Counted from the whole stretch's first letter, positions 2,095 through 33,269 are shown. The stretch: 62,515 bases of DNA, filler included, from an uncultured bacterium (GCA_964543655.1; 4 parts of 4 records of this genome joined end to end with filler, not necessarily neighbours in it), one strand, 5' to 3'. Notes: a model not told the origin generated them from the sequence alone. Made by a program: numbers and translations.

Positions 2095-4491
2095 CTACTT
2101 TTTCCCTGGTTTTGAAGGAGGAATACCTTTGGCAGGCTGAATACCTCTTTTAGCAAGTTCTTCTATAATTTTTTTCATCATTTCTAAGTGTTGTTTTGGA
2201 TCCAATGTGCCTTTTGTTGAAATTTTTTCCCACAATTTTGCCTGAGTCATACTCTGGTGACATCCCATACAGAGTCCTGACCTCATAATAGTATCAAGTT
2301 CCTGTTTATTAAAAGCTCTACTCATTGGCCAGTGTGTACCTACTGTGGCAACCTGAACCCCATCTCTTGTTACAATTTGAGACCAATCATATTTTAACTC
2401 TGGAATTCCAGGGATTTGAACTTTATATTTTGTAGGAATTACTTTATTGGTTTTAGCATTAATCAAGTCTTCAACAATATCTTTATCCCATTTCATAAAA
2501 GAACCGCCACCAATTCCAAGGCCAACTGTTTTTGGATTAGTATGACATGATTCGCATGTTCTTGCTTTCCTCTGAGCAGTATGTGGTTGAACAGGACTCA
2601 TATCAATTGCAAGAGGTACCTGTTTTTGTCCTAATTCTTTAGCCTCATCAAGGCTATATGCGATTTTATTATTAACAAGAACTTTTCCATCAGGACCAAT
2701 TACTGTATATGTAACCTGACAGCCTGGCATTAGAGGTGAAACTCTTCCTTCTCCATTGATTCCAAGCACAGGATCTTCCCATCTTAAGTATGATCTTGAT
2801 TCCATTGCTTTACCAAGAGATTTTACACCATTTGTCCCATAAGCAGCATCAGCTGTTTGGCCATGTTTGTCATGAGTATTTCCATTTGCAATCCAATCAG
2901 TATCCATCTTCATTTTTCCAGTTTTTTTATCTCTTTTAAAAGTAACTTTCACATGGCATCCATAACATTGTGGTACCCATGAAGCATGGCATGAATAACA
3001 CTCCATCTTGTCCATATGTTTAGCTACTGCTTCCATTGCTACTTTAGCAGAAGGATCTTTCCATTTATTCTGTAAAGAAAGATTTTTTAATACAGGAACA
3101 TGGAAATCGTTTCCTGTTGCAGAGTGAACAATTACTTCATTACCTTTTCTAACAACATTTCCAAGTGGATTACCTCTTGCTGAAAGAATAAAGCCATCTT
3201 CTGGTTTATATTGGAATCCAAATTGATCTTCAGGCGCAACTCTTTTTTTTGCAACTCCTCTTGGTTTGTTAGAAAGCTTTTTACCTGCTTCATCACCATA
3301 ACCAAGTGGCAATTCCCATGGATACTTATCTGGTCGACCATGGCAATCTGTACACTCTATTTCTACCTGACCTAAAGTAGTTGTATGAATATTGCCATCG
3401 CCATGCATTTCTATACTTGTGTGGCAGTCCTGACATAGCAGACCACCTTTAGGGTTCTCTTTCCTGCTCTGATATTGATGATGTAAATCATCTGAAATAA
3501 AAATATACTTTTTAGTATGGAGCTTTGGTTGCTTCATACCTTTTTTATTAAAAGGAGTACCATAAGGAAATTCCATTAAACCTTGAAATGAAACACCAAT
3601 TCTTTTTCCTCTATTGTGACAAGAATTACATGTTTCTACAGGTATACCACCAGTGTATCTTGTACCAGCAATTTTATGCCTTAATAAATGGCCTGGTTTA
3701 TCTTTTGGAATGGAAGGATCATTTCCTTCATAATATCCATCATTGCTGTAGAGAATATGACATGCGGAACATCCCATTCCTCTGTAGTCGCCTCTTTTCT
3801 CTCTTCCTCTTACACCAATATGACATCTCTGGCACTGCTGTCTTTGATAAACAATTCCAGCAAGTTTAGGATCTTTTATAACATCAGCCACTTTAACAGT
3901 AGGAAGCTGTTTTAATTTTTCAGGATAAATTTTAGGATACATCTGAATCATTTCTTTCATATATTTTTTATATTTATCCATTCCTACCATTGGCATTGAA
4001 CCGTCAAGATCCTCTGCATTATAGTTACCATAAGGATTATTATGATTTTGAACTTCTTTAAATCCCCAGGTGTGAAGGTTACCAGAAATTTTACCAGCCT
4101 CTGTGTTCATTAATCCAATTTTATTTCTATAAACGTATCCAACGTGACAAACTCCACAACTATTATCAGCAATCCAGATTGAACCAGGATCAGGATAGAA
4201 AGCCTTTGGACCAGGTGCTATTTTCAATGTTGCAGGAACACCTTTGTGTGCTTTATCCTTGTCTTTGGTCTCTTTTGGGTTACCACCGTGACAGATTACA
4301 CAGCCATCAGGATCGCCATGCATTTTACCATTGTTTAAAATTGCCTGCATCATTTTACTATCTTTTGGCATAATGTCTTCAATTCCTTTGTGACATTTTG
4401 CAGTTGTACACCCGCCGCCAGCATAAATAAAGTTAGCAAAAGATAGAAAAGAACAGATTGAAATAAAAATTACAAACCTTTTAAAACTCAT
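2095..4491 (-). CDS. Large exported multiheme cytochrome c (11 CxxCH plus one CX4CH)
   Basis: Signal peptide. Motifs CTTAKCH, CVICH, CGVCH, CQRCH, CSACH, CNSCH, CQDCH, CTDCH, CYSCH, CYGCH, CESCH, CMGCH. SD GGAGGGAG. Confidence 0.9.
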   Translation of the reverse strand: MSFKRFVIFISICSFLSFANFIYAGGGCTTAKCHKGIEDIMPKDSKMMQAILNNGKMHGDPDGCVICHGGNPKETKDKDKAHKGVPATLKIAPGPKAFYPDPGSIWIADNSCGVCHVGYVYRNKIGLMNTEAGKISGNLHTWGFKEVQNHNNPYGNYNAEDLDGSMPMVGMDKYKKYMKEMIQMYPKIYPEKLKQLPTVKVADVIKDPKLAGIVYQRQQCQRCHIGVRGREKRGDYRGMGCSACHILYSNDGYYEGNDPSIPKDKPGHLLRHKIAGTRYTGGIPVETCNSCHNRGKRIGVSFQGLMEFPYGTPFNKKGMKQPKLHTKKYIFISDDLHHQYQSRKENPKGGLLCQDCHTSIEMHGDGNIHTTTLGQVEIECTDCHGRPDKYPWELPLGYGDEAGKKLSNKPRGVAKKRVAPEDQFGFQYKPEDGFILSARGNPLGNVVRKGNEVIVHSATGNDFHVPVLKNLSLQNKWKDPSAKVAMEAVAKHMDKMECYSCHASWVPQCYGCHVKVTFKRDKKTGKMKMDTDWIANGNTHDKHGQTADAAYGTNGVKSLGKAMESRSYLRWEDPVLGINGEGRVSPLMPGCQVTYTVIGPDGKVLVNNKIAYSLDEAKELGQKQVPLAIDMSPVQPHTAQRKARTCESCHTNPKTVGLGIGGGSFMKWDKDIVEDLINAKTNKVIPTKYKVQIPGIPELKYDWSQIVTRDGVQVATVGTHWPMSRAFNKQELDTIMRSGLCMGCHQSMTQAKLWEKISTKGTLDPKQHLEMMKKIIEELAKRGIQPAKGIPPSKPGKK

Positions 4492-4611: not shown

Positions 4612-5793
4612 TTATTTTGCATCATTTATTATTGGTAAAGCAATTTTAACAAGCATAGTGTATATTAAAAGCCCAGCAGCCCATATACCTATAACAATGA
4701 ATACTTCATTTAAAGTTGGCACATATTGAATAAAATCACCAATAGTTGAAGGTATGAACCCTGGAATTAGAAATCCAAGACCTTTTTCTAACCACACCCC
4801 GAGCACTGTGAAAAGGCATGCAATTATGAGAAAACTATTTTTAAATCTTAAAGGTGTTACAAATATAAAAACAGCAGACAAAATTAAAAGTATTGCAAGC
4901 CAAATCCATGGAGTTAATAAGCTTGAACCGTGCAGTCCAAGTAAAAAAGAAAGATGAATAGTATGAGTTGTTGAATGATAAAGTTCAGCAAAAATTTCAG
5001 AACCCATAAGAATAAGATTAATAATTAGGCTGACAGTTACTATAATTCTAATTCTATTAATTGCACCATCACTTATTTCAATTGCTTTACTCTTTTTCAA
5101 AATCATAAATACCAGAATCATAAATGCGGGACCTGCAGAAAAAGCAGATGCCAGAAATCTTGGTGCAACAATTCCTGAGTGCCAGAAAGGTCTTCCTACA
5201 AGAGCTTCAAATAAAAAACCTGTAACAGTATGAATTGATGGTGCCCATACAATAGAAAGAAACACAACAAAAATATAAAAAGATGTTTTTACTTCTAAGT
5301 GCCTATATTTTCGTGATAAATAGTGCCAACAAACAAAAAGATTAATTAAAAGATAGCCATTTAAAACAAGAACATCCCATGTTAACATTGACCTTGGCCA
5401 ATGAAATCTTCCTATTACCGGTATTAGATGCCATAGCCTATCAGGCCGACCAAGATCTATTGTAATAAAAAGCATGCACATTATAAGTGCAGCAATTGCA
5501 AATAGCTCTGCAAAGATAACAATTTTCCCCATATCTTTATCTTTAAAAACATATGCAGGAATTACCATCATCACAGCAGCAGCAGCCATCCCTACAAGAT
5601 AAACAAAGTTTGCTATATAGAATCCCCAGGAAACTTCATCTCCCATTCCTGTTGTATAAAGACCAAAAGCAAGTTGTTTAGCATAGCAATGTAAACCTAT
5701 TAAAACCAGGGTTAATAAAAACAATACCCAGATAATGTATGCTTTACTGCCATTTATTGTTGATTTTACAATATATCTTAAAACATCTATCAT
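4612..5793 (-). CDS. NrfD/PsrC/DsrP-family quinone-interacting membrane subunit
   Basis: About 10 TM helices; VSWGFYIANFVYLVG, DLGRPDR, SIHTVT and RFLASAF motifs. Confidence 0.88.
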   Translation of the reverse strand: MIDVLRYIVKSTINGSKAYIIWVLFLLTLVLIGLHCYAKQLAFGLYTTGMGDEVSWGFYIANFVYLVGMAAAAVMMVIPAYVFKDKDMGKIVIFAELFAIAALIMCMLFITIDLGRPDRLWHLIPVIGRFHWPRSMLTWDVLVLNGYLLINLFVCWHYLSRKYRHLEVKTSFYIFVVFLSIVWAPSIHTVTGFLFEALVGRPFWHSGIVAPRFLASAFSAGPAFMILVFMILKKSKAIEISDGAINRIRIIVTVSLIINLILMGSEIFAELYHSTTHTIHLSFLLGLHGSSLLTPWIWLAILLILSAVFIFVTPLRFKNSFLIIACLFTVLGVWLEKGLGFLIPGFIPSTIGDFIQYVPTLNEVFIVIGIWAAGLLIYTMLVKIALPIINDAK

Positions 5794-5811: not shown

Positions 5812-6735
5812 CTAAGCTTTTGAAAAAACATAGTATAATTGAGGTATTGTGCCCATCTCCTCTTTTAAAATGAAGACTCTTTCCTGCTCTATAATTCTTC
5901 TAACTTCACTTTTGGGATCCCTTAAATTTCCAAATTTTCTTGCACCAGTTGGGCAAACCTCAACACATGCAGTATATTTTCCTTTTCTTGTTCTTTGAAG
6001 GCAGAATGTGCATTTTTCCATCACATTGGTATATCTTGGCCTGTTGGATAGATATGCCATATCAGGATTAAGTTCATCAGATGGTATGTGTGGTTTTGCC
6101 CAGTTGAAACGTCGTGCATGATATGGACATGCTGCTTCACAATATCTGCATCCAATACACCAGTTATAATCTACTACAACAATACCATCCTTTTCCTTCC
6201 AGGTTGCTCCTACTGGACAAACTTCAACACAAGGAGGTTTTCTACATTGGTGGCATTGAATAGGCATGTACCAGTAATTGGGGTCAGCAGCTTCATTTTC
6301 TGGGTAATCGTGGCTTCCCTGTTCAAGGTTAATGGAGCCTTTTTTCATTTTCACAACTCTAATATATTGAATTTGAGGATTACGTGAAGTATTATTTTCT
6401 TTCATACATGCATAAACACATCTTCTGCAACCAATACATCTACCCACATTAATTACCATTGCAAATTCCACTGCATCAATAGGAGGGGGATCGTCTATTT
6501 TAACCTTTTTGTTATACTCTTTTCTTAATTTTTGCTCCAATTTTTTAAAAAGTACCTTTTTATCCTCTGGTGTCATTTCTTTATAATGTTTTTGGAGTAT
6601 TTCATCTATAGTTGGTACTTCAGCTGCTTTGGTTAAAGGAGAAAGAGCTGCTGCGCCAGCAAGTGTAACAGCTCCACCAACAGCAGTTGCTGTAATAAAT
6701 TCTCTTCTTGTTAATTTTTCTTTCTTTTTTTTCAT
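5812..6735 (-). CDS. Tat-exported 4x[4Fe-4S] protein (NrfC/DsrO/QrcC family)
   Basis: Twin-arginine signal LTRREFI. Four Cys groups: CIGCRRCVYAC, CHQCRKPPCVEVC, CIGCRYCEAAC, CTFC...CVEVC. Confidence 0.9.
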   Translation of the reverse strand: MKKKKEKLTRREFITATAVGGAVTLAGAAALSPLTKAAEVPTIDEILQKHYKEMTPEDKKVLFKKLEQKLRKEYNKKVKIDDPPPIDAVEFAMVINVGRCIGCRRCVYACMKENNTSRNPQIQYIRVVKMKKGSINLEQGSHDYPENEAADPNYWYMPIQCHQCRKPPCVEVCPVGATWKEKDGIVVVDYNWCIGCRYCEAACPYHARRFNWAKPHIPSDELNPDMAYLSNRPRYTNVMEKCTFCLQRTRKGKYTACVEVCPTGARKFGNLRDPKSEVRRIIEQERVFILKEEMGTIPQLYYVFSKA

Positions 6736-7389
6736 CTATTTTGCCCCTTTAATTTTGTTTGGAACAGGAAATGATAAAGAATATGGTGTATTCTCAAATA
6801 TATCAATAGGTTTTAACCTTATAAACTTTTTGTCCCATACTGGTGCTGGGTCAAAATTTCTAAATTTATATTTTGGAGAATGTGGATCATGGCAAAAAGT
6901 GCATTTGAAATTTGTCCTGTCAAATCTTCCTTTTACAATCCATTTCCCTCTTAAAGAACCGTGCATCCCATTTTTCCACCTTTTGTAAACAAGTCCATGA
7001 CACCTTGCACAGAGAAGCTCTACATTAAAATACATTATTTTAGAACCGTCATTATTAACATAGTTATTTCTGTCAGATTCAAGATGGCAATTGAAACATC
7101 TATTGTTTTTCCCATGATTTAATTTAACTTCTGGGTGAACAAATTGAACAGGAAAATGAGAAAGTTGAGGTATTGAAGCCCACATAGCATGGCATACCCA
7201 GCAATTGCCCACAATAACAGCATGTTTCATTAAGTTTTCTCTTGGAAGCTCAGGATTGTACCATTTGGCTTTTAATTTTGGTATATTTTTTATTGGATTG
7301 GAGACTTTTTGCCCGCTAATTATAAAACTAATAAAAAGTATAATGCATAGAGGAATACCAATTATTAGCCATAAATTATTTTTATTCAT
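6736..7389 (-). CDS. Membrane-anchored tetraheme cytochrome c
   Basis: N-terminal TM helix; CWVCH, CFNCH, CARCH, CTFCH. Confidence 0.85.
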   Translation of the reverse strand: MNKNNLWLIIGIPLCIILFISFIISGQKVSNPIKNIPKLKAKWYNPELPRENLMKHAVIVGNCWVCHAMWASIPQLSHFPVQFVHPEVKLNHGKNNRCFNCHLESDRNNYVNNDGSKIMYFNVELLCARCHGLVYKRWKNGMHGSLRGKWIVKGRFDRTNFKCTFCHDPHSPKYKFRNFDPAPVWDKKFIRLKPIDIFENTPYSLSFPVPNKIKGAK

Positions 7390-7473: not shown

Positions 7474-7544
7474 TTTATTTTTCAGATAGATTTTTTGAAA
7501 AATTTAATGTAAATATAGAACACAATAAATTCAGGAGGGCACTA

Positions 7545-7820
7545 ATGAAAAAATTTAGAGCAGTTTTAATTATTTTTACTCTTCTTTTTTCCACAATTCT
7601 TTTTGCAAAAAGCATTACAGAGACTCTTAAGGTTAAGGGTATGTCGTGACCTGGTAGAGCATATCAGGTGCGTAGCGCCTTAAAAAGTAACAGTGGTATA
7701 GAAAATGTAAAAACAGATGTGCATAATCATACAATTAAAATTACATTTGACAACAGCAAAATAAATTTGGAGAAAATAAAAAGAATTATTGAAGATAAGG
7801 GATTTAAAGTAGTTAAATAA
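7545..7820 (+). CDS. Exported heavy-metal-associated (HMA; MerP/CopZ-like) selenoprotein, 91 aa, Sec35
   Basis: SD AGGAGG, ATG 7545. Translation MKKFRAVLIIFTLLFSTILFAKSITETLKVKGMS-U(TGA 7647-7649)-PGRAYQVRSALKSNSGIENVKTDVHNHTIKITFDNSKINLEKIKRIIEDKGFKVVK, ending in TAA. The TGA sits at the first Cys of GMxCxxC, the HMA pattern continues after it, and the ORF ends 11 nt before the next gene. Confidence 0.8.
7666..7680 (+). promoter_or_regulatory. Candidate SECIS hairpin for the HMA selenoprotein
   Basis: AGGTGC-GTA-GCGCCT, a GC-rich island in AT-rich DNA. The GU-initial loop starts 22 nt after the UGA. Confidence 0.55.
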
Positions 7821-7831
7821 TTTAAAATATA

Positions 7832-10000
7832 ATGTTTAAAAGCATAAAAACAAAACTTATTTTTGCTTTTATTACCATTAATTTTCTTTCTGTAATTCTG
7901 ACAGCTTTTTATGCGAGGTATATTCAGAAAAGATTTGAAATAGAGAGAGCTGAAAAAATAGCTTTAAATGAAGTAAATTATCTGACTAAAGCAATTAAGA
8001 ACAATTTTAAACTTGCAATATCAGATTTGCTTATCCTTAGAGATTTACCTGATCTTCAACAATTTATAAATAATCCTACTGATGATGGGAAGTTAAAAAT
8101 TGAGAAGATTTTTATTAATTTTGCAAAATATCACAAAATATTTTACCAAATAAGACTTTTAGATCTATTTGGAAAAGAGATTATCAGGATTAACTGTATA
8201 AAAACTCCTTTTGTTGTTCCTGATAAAGAATTGCAGGTAAAATTTCACAGATACTATTTTCAGGCTATGTTGAAATTAAAAAAAGGTGAGGTATATATTT
8301 CTCCCTTTGATCTTAATGTAGAACACCATAAAATAGAAGTGCCATATAAACCAGTGATTAGAATAGGGATTCCTATATTTAACAAAAATAATAACAGCTC
8401 TTATTTCCTGATTGTAAATGTAGATGGTAATTTAATTTTAAATTTATTTAAAAGTCGAGAGAATAGAAAACTTGGAAAATACTTCTTAATTGATTGTAAA
8501 GGGAATTTTATTTACCATCCAAACAAAGAGAAAAGATTTGCATTTATGTTTGGCAAAAATGAAACTATTTTCAAAGAAGCCCCATATTTAAAGGATTTTA
8601 TAAAAAACAAAAAAGAAGGTGTTAAATATTTTGCCAAAGGGATAAAACATTTTTCAATAGTAAGTTTTAAAAAATTTAAACCTATTTCAAAAGGTAAGTC
8701 ACCAGAATTTGCAGTTATCTATTCAATATTTGATCCTGAATTATTAATAGGCTTTAATAAATATTTTAAAAACTTTATTATTTTCACTTTAATAATATTG
8801 CTTATTTCTTTAATCATTTCAACTTTTATTTCATTCACAATATCAAAGCCTATTTTAAAACTTGCAAAATTAACTAAAAAAATTAAGGATGGTGATCTGT
8901 CTGCACGTGTTGATATTAGAACCAATGATGAGCTTGGAATTCTGTCAGAAAACTTTAACAAAATGACTGAGAAGTTAAAACATACTATTACTCAGCTTAA
9001 ATCATCAGAGGAGAAGTATAGAAATTTATTTGAAAATACTCAGGATACAGTATTTCTCATAGATTTTTTGGGTAATATAAAGGAGTTAAACAGAGCAGGG
9101 CATACTCTTTTTGGTATTGAAAATATCAATAATAGAAATATATTTGAGTTTATTAAAGATAATTTTATAGAACAGATTAAAGAGGAAGATGAGATACACG
9201 AGAAGGAGATAGAGATTTTTAATTTAAAAGGTGAGAAAAGATTTGGTTCAATTAAAGCTCAGGTTAGAGATAAAGATTTTATTCAGGGGATTATTAGAGA
9301 TATTACTGAATTAAAAAAAAGACATGAGGAGAGGTTAAAAACCAAGCGTTTAATTGAAGAGCAAATTATACTTGCTGAGGAAAGAGAGAGGAGAAATATT
9401 GGTCAGCTTATCCATGAGCAACTTGCTCAAGATATAGCATTTTTACATTTAAAAACAGAAGAGCTTTATGAAAAATTTAATAATGATTCAATATTACAAA
9501 TTTTAAATACCACCAATAAAATGTTAAAGCAGATTAGGGGTACAATATTTGACTTATGTCCTGTAATTCTTGATGAGCATGGTTTAATATCAGCGATTAG
9601 GTGTTATTGTGAAAATTTTGAAGAAAAAAGTAAAATAAAGGTATTATTTTACACAAATTTGAGGGAGGAAAATATCCCTTTAACACAAACTGAAAAGTTT
9701 TATCTTTTTAGAATAGTTAAAGAGCTATTGAACAATGTATTAAAATATTCAGGTGCAACAGAGGTTGTTATCTCATTTTTGATTGTTGAAAATGTTTTAA
9801 GACTTGTTATAGACGATAATGGTAAGGGGTTCAATGTTGAGAAATATTTTAACAGGAAAAAATATAGTAGCGGCATTGGATTATTTACAGTAAAAAAATG
9901 GGTTGAGCATTTTAAAGGAAATTTCTACATAGAATCTGCAGAAGGAGAGGGAACACGTGCTATAATAGAGATTCCTGAAAAAGGTGCAGAGAATGATTAG
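7832..10000 (+). CDS. Sensor histidine kinase (periplasmic Cache, HAMP, PAS, HisKA_3, HATPase)
   Basis: Two TM helices around a periplasmic domain; HAMP (PILKL...DELGIL); ERRNIGQLIHEQLAQ H-box; ELLNNVLKYS, DDNGKGF and GIGL boxes. Confidence 0.9.
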   Translation: MFKSIKTKLIFAFITINFLSVILTAFYARYIQKRFEIERAEKIALNEVNYLTKAIKNNFKLAISDLLILRDLPDLQQFINNPTDDGKLKIEKIFINFAKYHKIFYQIRLLDLFGKEIIRINCIKTPFVVPDKELQVKFHRYYFQAMLKLKKGEVYISPFDLNVEHHKIEVPYKPVIRIGIPIFNKNNNSSYFLIVNVDGNLILNLFKSRENRKLGKYFLIDCKGNFIYHPNKEKRFAFMFGKNETIFKEAPYLKDFIKNKKEGVKYFAKGIKHFSIVSFKKFKPISKGKSPEFAVIYSIFDPELLIGFNKYFKNFIIFTLIILLISLIISTFISFTISKPILKLAKLTKKIKDGDLSARVDIRTNDELGILSENFNKMTEKLKHTITQLKSSEEKYRNLFENTQDTVFLIDFLGNIKELNRAGHTLFGIENINNRNIFEFIKDNFIEQIKEEDEIHEKEIEIFNLKGEKRFGSIKAQVRDKDFIQGIIRDITELKKRHEERLKTKRLIEEQIILAEERERRNIGQLIHEQLAQDIAFLHLKTEELYEKFNNDSILQILNTTNKMLKQIRGTIFDLCPVILDEHGLISAIRCYCENFEEKSKIKVLFYTNLREENIPLTQTEKFYLFRIVKELLNNVLKYSGATEVVISFLIVENVLRLVIDDNGKGFNVEKYFNRKKYSSGIGLFTVKKWVEHFKGNFYIESAEGEGTRAIIEIPEKGAEND

Positions 10001-10640
10001 AGCTGTTATAGTTGATGACCATATAATGTTTAAGGAAGGATTGAAAAATCTTATTTTAAAGGAACCTGAAATAGTTATTGTTGGCGAGGATGATAATGGT
10101 ATAACAGCACTTGACAAAATAATATCATTAAAACCTGATATAGCTATAGTTGATATTTCAATTCCTGGGTTAAATGGTATAGAACTAACGAAACTTATAA
10201 AGAAAAATGTGCCTAAAACAGAAGTTTTAATACTCTCTATGCACGCAGATACTTATTTTGTTATAAATGCTATGAAAAGTGGTGCAAAAGGTTATATATT
10301 AAAGGAAGATAGTTTCAAGCTATTAATAGAAGCTATAAAAAAAGTGTCAAAAGGTAGATTTCTCCTTTCTCCTGCATTTAATTCCATAGATGTGAAGAAA
10401 ATTTTTCATAATGATACATTTGAAGAAGATAATAATCTTGATCAACTTCTTACTGAAAGAGAGATACAGATTTTGCAGATGATTGCAGAGGGTTTTACTA
10501 ATTCACAAATTGCTGAAAAATTGTTTATTAGTACAAGGACTGTTGATACACATAGAAAAAATATAATGAAAAAGTTGAATATACACAATGTATCAGGTCT
10601 TGTAAAATATGCAATTAAACATAAGATTATTGTAATTTAA
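9993..10640 (+). CDS. NarL/FixJ-family response regulator (REC plus LuxR HTH)
   Basis: VIVDDH, DISIP and LTEREIQIL...TVDTHRKNIMKKL. ATG 9993 overlaps the kinase stop. Confidence 0.92.
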   Translation: MIRAVIVDDHIMFKEGLKNLILKEPEIVIVGEDDNGITALDKIISLKPDIAIVDISIPGLNGIELTKLIKKNVPKTEVLILSMHADTYFVINAMKSGAKGYILKEDSFKLLIEAIKKVSKGRFLLSPAFNSIDVKKIFHNDTFEEDNNLDQLLTEREIQILQMIAEGFTNSQIAEKLFISTRTVDTHRKNIMKKLNIHNVSGLVKYAIKHKIIVI

Positions 10641-21910: not shown

Positions 21911-24334
21911 ATGAAATACCCATACTTGCCATTAAGAGATTTTGTCCTTTTACCAGGTCAGAAAGAGACTCTATTTTTTGGACGGAAAAAGTCAATTGCA
22001 GCTATTGAGTATGCAATTGAGGAAAATAGTTTACTTGTTATTTCAGCACAGAAGAATCCAAAAGATAGTAATCCAGGATTAGAGGATATTTTTTTAAAAG
22101 GAGTTACTATAGAAATAAAGCAGGTTGTTAAACTTACTGATGGAACATTTAAAGTTACTTTAATAGGGAGAGAGCTTTTTAATATTGAGAAGTTATATGA
22201 TAGAGATATTCTATATGTTGAAGGTGAAGTTATTAAAGAGGTGTACAACTGGGATAAAGATAAAACTGAAGTTGAAGCTGTAATGAGGAATATTATTACA
22301 ATTTTTCAGCAATATGCAAAATTAAATCCAGCTATGAATATAGAAGATGTTATTGATATAGTTTCCACAGACAATCCTTATAAATTGTGTTATGAAATTG
22401 GTGCAAAGTTAAATCTTAAAGTAAAAGAGAAACAGGCATTGCTTGAGTTTGACTCAATTACAAAAAAGCTCGAACATATTTATGCATTGTTACTTTCTGA
22501 AATAGAAATTATTCAAATAGATAAAAAAATTAAAGAAAAGGTTAAAAATCAAATTTCAAAAACTCATAAAGAGGTCTATCTTCAGGAACAGCTTAATGCA
22601 ATTCAGAATGAACTGGGAATGAAAGTTGACCCAAAATCAGATATTTTAGAGCTTGAAAAAAGATTAAACAACCTGAATTTGCCAGAAGAAGTTAGAAACA
22701 AAGTTAATGAAGAATTAAGAAAATTAAAGCTTAGCCATCCAGCTTCTGGAGAAACTACCATTATTAGAAATTATCTTGAATGGATAGTGGAAATTCCCTG
22801 GAATCTGTTTACTGAGGATGAAAAAGATTTAAACAAAGTTGAAGACATTTTAAATGAAGATCATTATGGACTTGAGAAAGTTAAAGATAGAATTGTTGAA
22901 TATATTGCTGTAAAATTGCTTTCAGAGTCAAATAATTCTCCAATTTTATGTTTTGTTGGGCCACCAGGTGTTGGTAAAACTTCACTTGGTAAATCAATAG
23001 CAAGAGCATTGAATAGGAATTTTGTTAGAATGTCACTTGGTGGTGTAAAAGATGAAGCAGAAATAAGAGGCCACAGAAGAACTTACTTAGGGGCATTACC
23101 AGGGAAAATAATACATTCAATGAAAAAAGCCAAATCATCAAATCCAGTATTTCTCCTTGATGAGATAGATAAAATTAGCTCTGATTACAGAGGTGATCCT
23201 GCTTCTGCTCTTCTGGAAGTTTTAGACCCGGAGCAGAATCATACTTTTAATGATCACTATCTATCAGTTGATTATGATCTTTCCAATGTTTTATTTATTG
23301 CTACTGCTAATTATATTGAGAATATTCCTATTCCTCTTAGGGATAGAATGGAAATAATTAGAATTGAAGGTTATACTGAATTTGAAAAACTTGAAATTGC
23401 AAAGCAGTATCTTATACCAAATCTATTGAAAGATACAGGACTAATAGATAAAGTTGAAATAAAGTTTAGTGATGAAGCAATTCTTTCAATAATCAGGCAT
23501 TATACAAGGGAAGCTGGTGTTAGAAATTTAAAAAGAAAGCTTGAAAAGATTTTAAGGAAAATTGCAAAATCTTACATTAAAGGTGAAATTAAAACAGCAA
23601 GTAAATCAATTACCAAAAAAAATATCAGCAAATATCTTGGAGTAGAAAGATTCAGGAAAGAGAATTATAAAATGGTTTCGAAAGTAGGTGTTACCAATGG
23701 CCTTGCATGGACTCAATCTGGAGGTGAGATATTATCAATAGAAGCATCAATAGTTAAAGGTACTGGAAATGTTCAGATTACTGGCAAACTTGGTGAAGTA
23801 ATGCAGGAGTCTGTTAAAACTGCTCTAACATATGTTAGAACCAGGGCAGATGTTTTTGGATTAATTGATGATTTTTACAAGAATCTTGACTTCCATATAC
23901 ATGTGCCAGAAGGTGCTGTGCCAAAGGATGGCCCATCAGCAGGCATTACAATTGCTACTTCAATTATTTCAGCATTAACAGGTATTCCTGTTAAAGGAAA
24001 TATAGCAATGACAGGAGAGATTACATTACGTGGCAATATATTACCAATTGGTGGATTAAAAGAGAAGCTTTTAGCAGCAAGGAGGCATGGAATAACAAAT
24101 GTTATTATTCCTGAAAAAAATAGGCCTGATATAGATGAAATTCCAGAAGAGATTCTCACTGGATTAAACATAATTCTCCTTGAAAATATGGATGACGTGG
24201 TGATTGAAGCTCTTCACATGGAAAAAGAGCAGAGGGAAAAGTTGGAGAAAGAGATAAAAAATGGAATATCTCACAGAAAAATTGCAAAATTAATCAATCG
24301 TGATTATTTTTTTAGTTCAATTTCAAAACATTAA
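21911..24334 (+). CDS. lon: Lon protease
   Basis: GPPGVGKTS; PKDGPSAG catalytic Ser; GGLKEK. Confidence 0.97.
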   Translation: MKYPYLPLRDFVLLPGQKETLFFGRKKSIAAIEYAIEENSLLVISAQKNPKDSNPGLEDIFLKGVTIEIKQVVKLTDGTFKVTLIGRELFNIEKLYDRDILYVEGEVIKEVYNWDKDKTEVEAVMRNIITIFQQYAKLNPAMNIEDVIDIVSTDNPYKLCYEIGAKLNLKVKEKQALLEFDSITKKLEHIYALLLSEIEIIQIDKKIKEKVKNQISKTHKEVYLQEQLNAIQNELGMKVDPKSDILELEKRLNNLNLPEEVRNKVNEELRKLKLSHPASGETTIIRNYLEWIVEIPWNLFTEDEKDLNKVEDILNEDHYGLEKVKDRIVEYIAVKLLSESNNSPILCFVGPPGVGKTSLGKSIARALNRNFVRMSLGGVKDEAEIRGHRRTYLGALPGKIIHSMKKAKSSNPVFLLDEIDKISSDYRGDPASALLEVLDPEQNHTFNDHYLSVDYDLSNVLFIATANYIENIPIPLRDRMEIIRIEGYTEFEKLEIAKQYLIPNLLKDTGLIDKVEIKFSDEAILSIIRHYTREAGVRNLKRKLEKILRKIAKSYIKGEIKTASKSITKKNISKYLGVERFRKENYKMVSKVGVTNGLAWTQSGGEILSIEASIVKGTGNVQITGKLGEVMQESVKTALTYVRTRADVFGLIDDFYKNLDFHIHVPEGAVPKDGPSAGITIATSIISALTGIPVKGNIAMTGEITLRGNILPIGGLKEKLLAARRHGITNVIIPEKNRPDIDEIPEEILTGLNIILLENMDDVVIEALHMEKEQREKLEKEIKNGISHRKIAKLINRDYFFSSISKH

Positions 24335-24368: not shown

Positions 24369-24608
24369 CTATGATAAAACCTTGTCAATAAGCTCTTTAA
24401 TCTGCTCTTTTGCAACAAGACCAACTGACTGCTCAACAACTTTACCATCTTTAAAAAATAGAATTGTAGGAATACCTTTAATTCCATATTCCATAGCTGT
24501 TTTCTGATTTTCATCAACATTTAATTTGCAAATATTAATTTTATCTGAGTATTCTTCTGCAATATCATCTATTACTGGTGCAAGAGCAAGGCATGGTCCA
24601 CACCAAGA
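24369..24608 (-). CDS. trxA: Thioredoxin, 5'-truncated by the contig end
   Basis: Not in the ORF track. Translation SWCGPCLALAPVIDDIAEEYSDKINICKLNVDENQKTAMEYGIKGIPTILFFKDGKVVEQSVGLVAKEQIKELIDKVLS, ending in TAG. Confidence 0.93.
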   Translation of the reverse strand, partial: SWCGPCLALAPVIDDIAEEYSDKINICKLNVDENQKTAMEYGIKGIPTILFFKDGKVVEQSVGLVAKEQIKELIDKVLS

Positions 24609-24708
24609 NNNNNNNNNNNNNNNNNNNNNNNNNNNNNNNNNNNNNNNNNNNNTTAATTAATTAANNNNNNNNNNNNNNNNNNNNNNNNNNNNNNNNNNNN
24701 NNNNNNNN
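24609..24708. other. Artificial contig spacer
   Basis: N run containing the six-frame stop linker TTAATTAATTAA. Confidence 0.97.
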
Positions 24709-24747
24709 CCAAAATATATCATGCGTATAGATGGTGGATGGAGTAAA

Positions 24748-26205
24748 ATGAAAAATATTATTAGCCTTGTAATTGAAGGCACATATCCTTATGTATCAGG
24801 TGGTGTGGCTACTTGGATTCATCAGATAATATCAAAACTTCCTGAATTTGATTTTTATCTAATTGTGTTACTTGCCAAAAGGGAAGATGCCAAAACAATG
24901 AAATATACTTTACCAGATAATGTAAAAGGTATTTATCATATTTTTCTTCAAGAATACCCTGAACGGCCTATTTTTTTTCCAAGAAAATTAAAAGGTAGAA
25001 AACTAATTGAAAAATGGTTAAACAATTTTTCCTACGAATCATTTGTTGATATTGTAAAATTTTATTATTACATAAAAAATAAAAATAGAATTATTGTTGA
25101 AAGCCTTTATTCAAAAGAATCTTTTTTAATTCAGGAAAAAATTTATAAAATGTTAAAAACAGAAGCCTCATTTATAAACTTTTTCTGGAATTTACGTTCT
25201 CTAATTATTAATGTGTTAAATGTTTTTGCTGCTAATCCAGAGATTTGTAAAGTTGTACATACAATATCTACTGGCTTTGCTGGGCTTCTTGCGTCAATAT
25301 TAAAGATAGCCAATACTGAAGTATCCATGCTTCTTACAGAGCATGGTATTTACACAAGGGAGAGGGATATTGAAATATCAGTTGGTGTATGGCCAGATAC
25401 AGACCCTGATAATTACAGACCAGATGAGGGACTTGGAGCTTTTAAAGAAATGTGGAGAGAAAGTTTTTTCTATTTTTCAAAAATATGTTATTACACTGCT
25501 GATAAAATTATTACCTTAAATGAAAAAAATCGTGCTATAGAAATTGAGCAAGGAGCTGCTCCTGAAAAAACAATGGTGATAAGAAATGGTATTAATCTTT
25601 CAAAATACAGATTCAGGCATAGAAAAAAAATGTCTGAACCTCCTATAATAGGTTTTCTTGGAAGAATTGTAAAAATTAAAGATGTAAAAACTTTAATTCG
25701 TGCAGCAAAAATTGTTATTCAAAAAAGACCTGGAACTATTTTCAAAATAGCTGGCCCATATGATGAGGACCCTGAATACTTTGAAGAGTGCAGGCAGCTT
25801 GTAAAAATGTTGCTCATGGAAGATAACGTTAAATTTTTAGGTAGAGTTGATGCTGTTTCTTTTTTTGAAGAAATCGATCTACTGCTGCTCACATCAATTT
25901 CTGAAGGACAGCCACTTGTAATTGCTGAAGCAGCAAGCTGTGGTGTTCCATCTGTTGCAACTGATGTTGGAGGATGCAGAGAAATGCTTTATGGTGGTGG
26001 TGATGATAAGTTAGGAAAATCAGGACTTATTGCAGAGCAGGCAAATACCAATGATATTGCAAATGCAATATTGAGGTTTATTTATGATAATGAGTTTTAT
26101 TCAAAATGCTCAATTATAGGAAGAGAAAGGGTTGAAAAGTTTTACAATGAGGAACATTTAATAAAAAAATATAGGGAGATATATTCAGCTTATTTAACAT
26201 GTTAA
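24748..26205 (+). CDS. pelF: GT4 glycosyltransferase, Pel polysaccharide synthase type
   Basis: EGTYPYVSGGVATW, STGFAG, LLTEHGIYTRER, GRIVKIKDVKT, SISEGQPL. Start taken at ATG 24748 after GGAG. Confidence 0.88.
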   Translation: MKNIISLVIEGTYPYVSGGVATWIHQIISKLPEFDFYLIVLLAKREDAKTMKYTLPDNVKGIYHIFLQEYPERPIFFPRKLKGRKLIEKWLNNFSYESFVDIVKFYYYIKNKNRIIVESLYSKESFLIQEKIYKMLKTEASFINFFWNLRSLIINVLNVFAANPEICKVVHTISTGFAGLLASILKIANTEVSMLLTEHGIYTRERDIEISVGVWPDTDPDNYRPDEGLGAFKEMWRESFFYFSKICYYTADKIITLNEKNRAIEIEQGAAPEKTMVIRNGINLSKYRFRHRKKMSEPPIIGFLGRIVKIKDVKTLIRAAKIVIQKRPGTIFKIAGPYDEDPEYFEECRQLVKMLLMEDNVKFLGRVDAVSFFEEIDLLLLTSISEGQPLVIAEAASCGVPSVATDVGGCREMLYGGGDDKLGKSGLIAEQANTNDIANAILRFIYDNEFYSKCSIIGRERVEKFYNEEHLIKKYREIYSAYLTC

Positions 26206-31541: not shown

Positions 31542-32156
31542 ATGCTTCAACATGCTATAACTGTATTTTTAGGGTTTTTTGCAATTATGAATCCTATTGC
31601 AAATACCCCTGTTTTTGTTGGTTTAACTGAGGGAGAAAGCCACACTTCACAGAAAAAAATAGCATTCAAATCTTTATTAATCTCCTTTTGTATAGTATTT
31701 GCTTTTACAGTTGCTGGTAAAGCTATATTCAACCTTTTTGGTATAACTTTAACTGCATTAAAATTAACAGGTGGCATCCTTGTATTTATAATAGGTTATC
31801 AGATGTTACATGGTGAAGCATCTAAAATGCATAAACATCAGCAGAGTAGTGATATTGATATAGCTGTATCACCTCTTGCTGTTCCTATTCTTGCAGGCCC
31901 AGGTACAATTGCTACAGCCATGAATTACTCATCACATGAAGGATGGTTAGGTATTTTTCTTACAATAATTATGTTTGGAATATTGTGCATTATCACTTTT
32001 ATATGCTTCATTTTTGGTCAAAAAATGATAAAATTCATAGGTGAAAGTGGAATGAAAATAATTACAAGATTAATGGGGCTTATATTAGCTGTTATTGGAG
32101 CCCAGATGTTAATGGAAGGTATCATCAATATTCTCAAAATATCAAAAATTTCTTGA
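31542..32156 (+). CDS. MarC-family membrane protein
   Basis: MNPIAN, PLAVPILAGPGTI, RLMGLILAVIG. Confidence 0.9.
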   Translation: MLQHAITVFLGFFAIMNPIANTPVFVGLTEGESHTSQKKIAFKSLLISFCIVFAFTVAGKAIFNLFGITLTALKLTGGILVFIIGYQMLHGEASKMHKHQQSSDIDIAVSPLAVPILAGPGTIATAMNYSSHEGWLGIFLTIIMFGILCIITFICFIFGQKMIKFIGESGMKIITRLMGLILAVIGAQMLMEGIINILKISKIS

Positions 32157-32226
32157 TTTCAAATATTCAAAAAATCTATTATAGAAATTCTGTTTGACAA
32201 ATTATATAACATTGTGCTAATAAATA

Positions 32227-32236
32227 TTGTATACAA
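32227..32236. promoter_or_regulatory. Palindrome TTGTATACAA, GntR/FadR-type operator candidate
   Basis: Perfect palindrome between a TTGACA -35 element and the TAXI operon start. The same motif occurs at 38418-38431. Confidence 0.5.
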
Positions 32237-32267
32237 AATTTTTCCAAAAAATTCAAAGGAGGGAGAA

Positions 32268-33269
32268 ATGAAAAGGATTTTTACAGCATTACTTCTTGCA
32301 TTTTTTATTTTTGCAGGTTTTAGCACAAGTTATGCAAAAAGAGTTAGAATCATCTTTACCACAGGTGGTATTGGAGGAGTTTATCTCTACTATGGAACTC
32401 AGGTAGCTGCTATAATAACACAAAACACTCCTTATCAAGCTACAGCTATCCAAACAGCAGCTTCTATTGATAATAATTTACTTGTTAGAGACAAAACCAA
32501 CCCTAAAAAGAATTTATACTTCTGTGCTCTATCTTTACCTGACTCAGCTTATGTTGCATACAAAGGAATTCATCCAAAGTTTAAAAATAAACCAGCACCT
32601 ACAAGAATTTTATGGTTAATGTATCCTAATTATTTACAAATTGTAACAACAGAAGATTCTGGAATTAAAACAGTAAAAGATCTCGCAGGAAAAAGAGTTT
32701 CCACAGGTGCACCTGGCTCTGGAACAGAGTTTACAGCAAATCTTGTTTTAAAAGCAGCAGGAGTTAACCCAAACTCATTTAAAAAATGGGAAAAGCTTGG
32801 CGCCAAAGAATCTGCTGAAGCTTTATCAAATGGAACAATTGATGCATATTTCTGGTCAGGTGGTATTCCAACAGGCTCTATTGTTGAGCTTGCTACAACA
32901 TTAAAAAGAAAAGGTAAAAAAATTGCTTTTGTAATGATTCCAAAAGATAGCAAAATAGTAAAATTCTTTGATGAAAAATTTCCAGGTCTTGCAGAGACAG
33001 GAGTTATTCCAGCATCAACTTATGGCTCTTCTAAGGATACTCCTACAATCAGATTCTGGAATAGGGTACTTGCACCAGCTTGCATGCCTAAAGAAATGGC
33101 TTACAAAATTGTAAAAGCTGTTTTTGAGCATATTGACCAATTACACAGAGCTATTAAACCTGCTAAGCTTACAACAGTAAAAAATACCGCTAAATTTATA
33201 GGCAAAACAACTATTCCTTTCCATCCTGGTGCAATTAAATATTTTAAAGAAGTTGGAGCAATTAAGTAA
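32268..33269 (+). CDS. TAXI-family TRAP solute-binding protein
   Basis: Signal peptide; TGGIGGVY, DLAGKRVSTGAPGSGTE, IPFHPGAIKYFKE. SD GAGGGAG before ATG 32268. Confidence 0.9.
   Translation: MKRIFTALLLAFFIFAGFSTSYAKRVRIIFTTGGIGGVYLYYGTQVAAIITQNTPYQATAIQTAASIDNNLLVRDKTNPKKNLYFCALSLPDSAYVAYKGIHPKFKNKPAPTRILWLMYPNYLQIVTTEDSGIKTVKDLAGKRVSTGAPGSGTEFTANLVLKAAGVNPNSFKKWEKLGAKESAEALSNGTIDAYFWSGGIPTGSIVELATTLKRKGKKIAFVMIPKDSKIVKFFDEKFPGLAETGVIPASTYGSSKDTPTIRFWNRVLAPACMPKEMAYKIVKAVFEHIDQLHRAIKPAKLTTVKNTAKFIGKTTIPFHPGAIKYFKEVGAIK

Follow-up and report, generated by a model that had tools for sequence, protein, structure and literature searches.

The stretch of DNA analysed here (the window, 62,515 nt) carries on its plus strand, at 7545-7820, a gene for a protein that we refer to as HMA-U; it has 91 residues when an in-frame UGA is counted as selenocysteine (Sec), and its assignment is based on a Pfam match, a structural model and the structural neighbours of that model. 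Reading of the sequence places an AGGAGG of Shine-Dalgarno type (7533-7538, +) 6 nt 5' of the ATG. The first 21 residues (7545-7607, +) resemble a signal peptide, with a basic start, a hydrophobic run and ...LFA ahead of the mature part; the UGA (7647-7649, +) is codon 35 and falls where the HMA loop normally has its first Cys, and a TAA at 7818-7820 (+) closes the gene. Directly downstream are a sensor histidine kinase gene (7832-10000, +), encoding a periplasmic HK_sensor_dom_bact/dCache-like domain followed by HAMP, PAS and HATPase_c domains, and a response regulator gene (9984-10640, +; receiver domain plus LuxR/GerE helix-turn-helix) that overlaps the end of the kinase gene. Divergent from HMA-U on the minus strand lie genes for a membrane-anchored cytochrome c with 4 CxxCH motifs (6736-7389), an NrfC/DsrO-like 4Fe-4S subunit (5812-6735; DsrO 182 bits, below the cut-off of 200), an NrfD-family membrane subunit (4612-5793; DsrP 378.9 bits, cut-off 350) and a 798-residue multihaem cytochrome c with 11 CxxCH and 1 CxxxxCH (2095-4491; ExtM 213.5 bits against a cut-off of 800).

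An earlier note on this DNA had described an open reading frame starting at the ATG at 7545 and halted by the TGA at 7647-7649, exactly at the first Cys of the HMA motif, and had pointed out that read-through adds 56 codons before the TAA and leaves 11 nt to the kinase ATG at 7832; the sequence bears out each of these statements. The read-through product runs ...LKVKGMS-U-PGRAYQVRSALK..., with the loop ...KGMS-U-PGRAY..., and its translation contains 2 His and, as the note had also said, 0 Cys and an Arg (AGA) at the second-Cys position. The note's further point, that a single substitution separates AGA from TGA, is of no weight, since Arg, Lys or Thr is conserved here throughout the family. 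The signal-like region forms a helix (residues 2-19) in the model, and the MerP model TIGR02052 aligns from residue 1, which is consistent with a protein that is probably exported. Gene callers break HMA-U into a 60-aa and a 50-aa piece (P0003 and P0002), as would be expected if the gene were a nonsense pseudogene or the product of a sequencing or assembly error, with the TGA a true stop and the downstream half untranslated. Yet the pattern is beyond chance, since the frame remains open, and its translation homologous, both before and after the TGA, and the TGA is shared with relatives.

These relatives were located through the neighbouring isoleucyl-tRNA synthetase, for which the window's enzyme is 71% identical to that of genome G001 (L001) and 53-59% identical to those of the other listed genomes, mostly deltaproteobacterial-type MAGs; the phylum of G001 is represented in the genome collection by only five genomes (G001-G005). 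A profile search of the five detected an HMA-U homolog in four (G002-G005, E 6e-24 to 4e-35) and none in G001. In each of the four a single internal TGA is present, at the codon that holds it in the window, and the motifs read KGLT-U-PGKAY, KGMG-U-PGRAY, PGIT-U-PGTAY and PGIT-U-PGTAF. When 401, 68 and 301 genomes of three other phyla were searched with this profile, there were 5, 0 and 2 matches at E <=1e-15, two of which, L116 and L113, come from two further phyla (among the 401 and 301 genomes) and again have one TGA each, in the same position. The L116 homolog (1498-1788, +) reads ...PGIT-U-SASA..., with the motif U-S-A-S, and the L113 homolog (1462-1776, +) reads ...PSCS-U-PSIE..., with the motif C-S-U-P-S-I. 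Five matches in the other phyla lack a TGA, and the three whose motif was read (L111, L112 and L117, leaving L114 and L115) are ordinary CxxC proteins, as is L108. The UGA thus occupies the same codon in 7/7 DNA sequences from three phyla (the window, L082, L083, L084, L085, L116 and L113).

A pseudogene or an error at this site is very improbable on this evidence and is in our judgement largely refuted. Had close relatives possessed an intact CxxC while the window showed decay, the earlier note would have accepted a nonsense pseudogene; the comparison instead found six other genomes with the same TGA and the frame kept on both sides, and no family member shows Cys or any other sense codon there. 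A covarying hairpin downstream, described below, also argues against this reading. Among public sequencing runs, a 19.4-kb contig from run X1, which is possibly the source sample, spans the region with no difference at 7647-7649. In run X2, the only clear independent run, contigs end at 7643 and resume at 7656, and X2 therefore lacks coverage of the TGA; the gap at 7644-7655 sits exactly around the UGA and could reflect low depth (about 4) or a strain difference. In favour of the pseudogene or error, two pattern-based scans yielded no close relative: a genome-contig scan with P0001 gave no HMA-U relative, and a metagenome-contig scan with alignment A2 gave none with its single pattern, although the latter could not have found a TGA because the pattern allowed only Trp or Cys codons at the site. 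A word-index protein search with the read-through protein matched only the window's own two fragments. The sole match of a further scan, with P0066, was L081, a high-GC contig rejected as a 13-residue chance match in a frame that does not look coding.

An exhaustive HMMER search and a profile search of the protein database recovered 12 family members (P0015, P0030, P0066, P0088 and P0156-P0163), all with Trp at the Sec position; 11 of them have E values of 1e-28 to 7e-33, P0015 being the twelfth, and all derive from contigs of at most 3986 bp. These records are what would be expected if TGA stood for one of the standard amino acids in this lineage, Trp for instance, in the manner of code 4, so that residue 35 would not be Sec. 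P0158, against that, is the L085 product save that both TGAs are written as Trp, including the terminal one (tail ...W-R-L-V), and the Trp must therefore come from the gene caller and not from TGG. Apart from the Trp, P0156 and the L083 product differ at one residue, and P0161 and P0162 have a late Trp with run-on beyond it. The Trp is accordingly a code-4 gene-calling artefact in P0158, very nearly as clearly so in P0156 and presumably in the other ten, judging from sequence comparison; short low-GC contigs have apparently been called with a TGA=Trp code, which puts Trp at the Sec codon and sometimes adds a read-through tail. Codon usage in the window also speaks against a code change, as TGA terminates 13 of the 51 ORFs of at least 120 aa and TGG use is normal (178 of 18841 codons). 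In L084 and L085 the HMA-U gene itself terminates at a second TGA overlapping the kinase ATG, and TGA is therefore still a stop there. A reassigned code is the least probable of the explanations considered, and error, pseudogene and code change are effectively excluded as explanations of the HMA-U TGA. The next-best database matches (E 1e-14 and weaker) are ordinary CxxC proteins, and neither the database searches nor the genome profile searches yielded a Cys form within the family, which is therefore apparently obligately Sec-containing.

A SECIS-like hairpin follows the UGA. It was identified by RNAalifold on an ungapped alignment of seven DNA sequences (window, L082-L085, L116 and L113), which are related and coding, and it is the one helix returned: 7 bp at 7664-7682 (+; alignment columns 24-30 with 36-42), enclosing an apical loop of 5 nt at 7671-7675 in which G7672 and U7673 are invariant. 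The helix starts 14 nt and the apical loop 21 nt past the UGA. Pairing is kept in 45 of 49 cells (91.8%), with compensatory changes in five of the seven pairs; the covariation score and paired fraction were reached by none of 500 shuffles, and controls in which the partner columns were slid by 1-3 positions paired at 29-53%. Some of the compensations pair a synonymous substitution in a Val codon with a change from one Ser codon family to the other. The loop reads CGUAG or AGUUC, the latter in L116 and L113, whose hairpins are in the same register. Bacterial SECIS elements have been described, in the consulted part of PMC13188914, by a loop of 3-9 nt, a stem of 4-16 bp, a G in the first two loop positions and a spacing of 16-37 nt; the HMA-U hairpin, with its 7-bp helix, 5-nt loop containing GU, 21-nt spacing and covariation, falls within these limits, and 66-nt folds of 5/5 family genes have energies of -8.4 to -15.8 kcal/mol, in agreement with the energy criterion. 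In the window (7649-7669) and L082, energy minimisation favours a competing 8-bp hairpin in which the A of the UGA takes part; L083-L085 lack this hairpin, and the other sequences do not conserve it. The 71-nt stretch is no more stably folded than its shuffles (z -0.58), and a search of the whole window with Rfam at gathering thresholds returned only a tRNA.

The machinery for Sec insertion was scored in G001-G005 of the related phylum, a set that does not include the window's own genome. All five have a tRNA-Sec (72.8-83.4 bits against a cut-off of 47, with the anticodon TCA according to ARAGORN), SelB above cut-off and SelD, and four of the five have SelA. SelD has one in-frame TGA in each of the five genomes (e.g. 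L097, L098) and is therefore itself a selenoprotein in this phylum; in both SelD cases that were folded, a hairpin with a G in the loop lies downstream of the UGA. HMA-U is very probably a real selenoprotein gene. The earlier note's central claim, a hidden exported HMA selenoprotein with a single chalcogen, has held up and is well supported at the sequence level by the conserved UGA, the covarying hairpin, the Sec machinery of the phylum, mature domains that lack Cys in all 17 family members, and Arg, Lys or Thr in place of Cys at the fourth motif position.

As to the fold, the read-through protein aligns with the full length of the Pfam HMA profile (PF00403, positions 1-62 of 62, E 7.6e-13) and scores 49.1 bits against a gathering score of 24.8, in line with the domain assignment made in the earlier note. 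An AF2 model built with 31 sequences (pLDDT 83.1) has the beta-alpha-beta-beta-alpha-beta order of the ferredoxin-like HMA fold (E23-31, H36-47, E52-58, E63-69, H75-84, E88-90), and residue 35 lies in the loop ahead of helix 1. The best Foldseek matches are a Bacillus copper-binding protein, CopZ, MerP and the metal-binding domains of ATPases including ATP7B, with TM scores to target of 0.85-0.96 and rmsd values of 0.7-1.4; the 45 listed structural matches with E <=0.001 are all HMA domains. The two-Cys site of these domains, GMxCxxC, is lacking in HMA-U, which has the UGA at the first Cys and Arg, Lys or Thr at the second in 17/17 family sequences. These 17 are the five with DNA and the 12 Trp-annotated records, one duplicate and one near-duplicate included, and motif position 4 is Arg in 7, Lys in 2, Thr in 8 and Cys in none. 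P36, A39 and G51 are invariant and Y40 is nearly so; a Nitrospirota-labelled homolog has the motif U-x-x-S.

Several known families resemble HMA-U without including it. MerP (TIGR02052; PDB 1osd, 1afi) is of the same build, a small HMA protein of one domain, exported by means of a signal sequence at its N-terminus, and superimposes closely (TM 0.89, rmsd 1.0); but HMA-U scores 45.6 bits against a cut-off of 92.55, has U-P-G-R/K/T where MerP has C-x-x-C, and is surrounded by a kinase, a regulator and cytochromes instead of a mer operon. CopZ (NF033795; PDB 6ff2, 2qif) gives the best family score, 60 bits, which is below its cut-off of 91, and the best structural matches (TM 0.95-0.96, rmsd 0.7-0.8), whereas CopZ is cytoplasmic and binds Cu(I) through two Cys and HMA-U has a single Sec and is predicted to be exported. 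TusA/SirA proteins (PF01206), which have a Cys-Pro motif, share with HMA-U a single reactive chalcogen followed by Pro at the start of helix 1. TusA differs in being cytoplasmic, and a TusA identity was rejected for HMA-U (E 0.021, 15.1 bits, below 28.6; no TusA among the listed structural matches).

Selenium-containing HMA proteins have been catalogued before. As far as PMC13188914 and PMC9312934 describe them in the parts consulted, they comprise the UxxU_metal_bind family (NF041115), P1B-type ATPases with UxxC and a MerT/CopZ fusion (NF045683); like HMA-U, they place Sec first in the HMA metal loop and are hidden by an in-frame UGA, but all of them keep a second chalcogen, which is missing in 17/17 HMA-U members. 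HMA-U scores 31.8 bits against 95 for NF041115, with Arg at the second chalcogen position, and 25.7 bits against 375 for NF045683. HMA-U is therefore a single-chalcogen variant, as position 4 is never Cys and the catalogued proteins are UxxC or UxxU. The terms "PF00403", "heavy-metal" and "UxxR" are absent from the main text of PMC13188914, whose supplements might list the family under another name. What is apparently new here is the single-chalcogen site, the operon shared with a sensor kinase, and the seeming lack of any Cys form.

The gene order around HMA-U is partly conserved. The kinase gene lies directly 3' of HMA-U in four of the five loci (window, L082, L084 and L085), stop and start overlapping as ATGA in L084 and L085 and by one base in L082, and being 11 nt apart in the window, and the link between the two genes thus has support from synteny. 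The exception is G003, where the two genes are not adjacent: an FMN-reductase-family gene (L083:1819-2217) follows HMA-U at the contig end, and the kinase ortholog, on another contig, has in front of it an ORF of 114 aa that matches nothing in Pfam (L119:356-700); the two contigs may be neighbours with a gene inserted between HMA-U and the kinase. A promoter and terminator scan, which tells little in such AT-rich DNA, found 28 promoter-like sites where 21.1 were expected and no terminators, the gap between HMA-U and the kinase included. On the other side, the gene for the 4-haem cytochrome c is divergent from HMA-U in 5/5 loci (window, L082-L085), and the next gene after it is the NrfC/DsrO-like FeS gene in the four loci with enough sequence to show it (all but L082). 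Orthologs of the 798-residue cytochrome, with its 12 haem motifs, are 76-92% identical in G002-G005, and G001 has only a 35% paralog; the kinase too has orthologs in G002-G005 and none in G001, which likewise lacks HMA-U. A resemblance of the 798-residue cytochrome to the copper sulfite reductase MccA was also considered, and is without support because a PDB sequence search gave 0 matches. Outside the phylum, the L116 homolog is followed by a GGDEF protein gene and the L113 homolog sits between rubrerythrin-family and MatE genes.

We propose that the UGA at 7647 is decoded as Sec by SelB and tRNA-Sec, steered by the hairpin loop 21 nt downstream, and that HMA-U would be made in step with the downstream sensor kinase. 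The mature protein, about 70 residues long, would expose one selenol and no thiol, and beside the selenium, in the first helix-1 turn, an Arg, Lys or Thr would stand in for the second Cys of GMxCxxC. In the periplasm, we infer, the selenolate may capture a soft ligand, which could be a thiophilic metal ion or else some reactive chalcogen species, for which derivatives of polysulfide, selenite or tellurite are candidates; the loaded or oxidised protein would then be read by the periplasmic domain of the kinase, and the kinase and its LuxR-type regulator would control the divergent, quinol-linked multihaem cytochrome operon. The earlier note had suggested that the selenol may serve organomercury binding, persulfide or selenium transfer or metal bridging, and that the protein may be a partner of the kinase. 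Sensor kinases that have a periplasmic accessory protein encoded alongside are known, as in TorS with TorT and LuxQ with LuxP. HMA-U would resemble these accessory proteins as a small periplasmic ligand-binding protein whose gene accompanies those of a kinase and a regulator, next to a respiratory operon with a c-type cytochrome, an analogy of working only, since TorT and LuxP have the periplasmic binding protein fold, to which the HMA fold is unrelated. We regard a Sec-containing HMA-U acting with the kinase as co-sensor for the cytochrome operon as the best explanation as a whole, with a probability of roughly 0.45. The co-sensor mechanism taken by itself is advanced tentatively, at somewhat under even odds, and its narrowest form, in which a lone HMA selenolate senses a respiratory substrate or soft metal and the dCache kinase switches on the multihaem cytochrome operon, is rather doubtful.

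The main rival to a co-sensor is a carrier or chaperone serving the neighbouring respiratory module, a role that we consider somewhat unlikely. HMA-U would in that case load its selenol with a chalcogen atom (giving Se-S, Se-Se or Se-Te) or with a soft metal and pass this on to the multihaem cytochrome system, by analogy with the role proposed for a rhodanese-like protein in the Geobacter ext cluster. The divergent arrangement of HMA-U with the cytochrome/FeS/NrfD operon in 5/5 loci and its co-occurrence with the ExtM-like cytochrome would suit such a role, as would the situation in G003, where HMA-U remains beside the cytochromes and the kinase is elsewhere. According to the consulted part of PMC5877670, the Geobacter cluster with ExtM also encodes a rhodanese-like protein and has been linked to the reduction of selenite and tellurite, which also favours a carrier; but the ExtM match, at 213.5 bits, falls far short of the 800 required for the family, and the selenite/tellurite link therefore rests on the family name only. 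A selenooxazole-type RiPP locus (SbtM plus an SbtA-like gene), which belongs to this gene row both in the window and in G004, would fit as well, although SbtM is above cut-off in only one of the five related genomes. The stop/start overlap with the kinase gene in 3/5 loci suggests a low, kinase-matched expression and thus points away from a carrier; a protein made together with a low-copy kinase could still be a chaperone.

It is also conceivable, though improbable, that HMA-U is a redox enzyme, namely a periplasmic peroxidase-like or selenenylsulfide-forming oxidoreductase on an HMA scaffold. The U-x-x-T motif of 8/17 members and the U-x-x-S of the Nitrospirota-labelled homolog are in keeping with this, as UxxT and UxxS are catalogued, in what was consulted of PMC13188914, for GPx-like, OsmC-like and peroxiredoxin-like selenoproteins, and the L113 homolog adjoins the rubrerythrin-family gene. 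About half of the family, however, has Arg or Lys and not Thr at this position, the structural neighbours are all metal-binding HMA domains, and no partner redox gene lies beside HMA-U in the five loci.

If the co-sensor reading is correct, the lone-selenolate sensor would be the first selenocysteine-based module of signal perception, and HMA-U the first HMA domain working with one chalcogen, in the literature searched. HMA domains are the standard example of two-thiolate binding of soft metals, and the catalogued selenium versions, so far as the consulted sources go, keep two chalcogens; a single selenol therefore implies a different chemistry, that is, one-coordinate or bridging metal binding, or Se-S or Se-Se adducts. 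Its position beside a kinase and a respiratory cytochrome operon makes HMA-U a concrete and testable case for selenium in signal perception, in a poorly known lineage with five species in the genome collection. In public data the protein is missed or mistranslated, being either broken at the UGA or given Trp by code-4 calls, and surveys of selenoproteomes built on such gene calls therefore overlook it.

A search of the window for other pairs of ORFs in one frame with a TGA between them gave 28 candidates, two of which were translated. One pair (31542-33269) appears by eye to be two separate genes, and another (24382-24660) runs into a stretch of N, which extends from about 24600 to 24657 in the gap between the ORFs at 21911-24334 and 24721-26205. 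The minus strand carries a second hidden selenoprotein ORF, of 84 codons (1805-2059), with three in-frame TGAs (...KSG-U-GG-U-GGKS... and, at the C-terminus, ...SSG-U-G). Its leader scores 25.9 bits against the SbtA precursor model (cut-off 30.5), and directly downstream of it, at 497-1795 on the same strand, is a radical SAM gene matching the thio(seleno)oxazole maturase SbtM with 510 bits (cut-off 350). The same ORF is found in G004 (L104:1136-1375, +), with all three TGAs in the same places.
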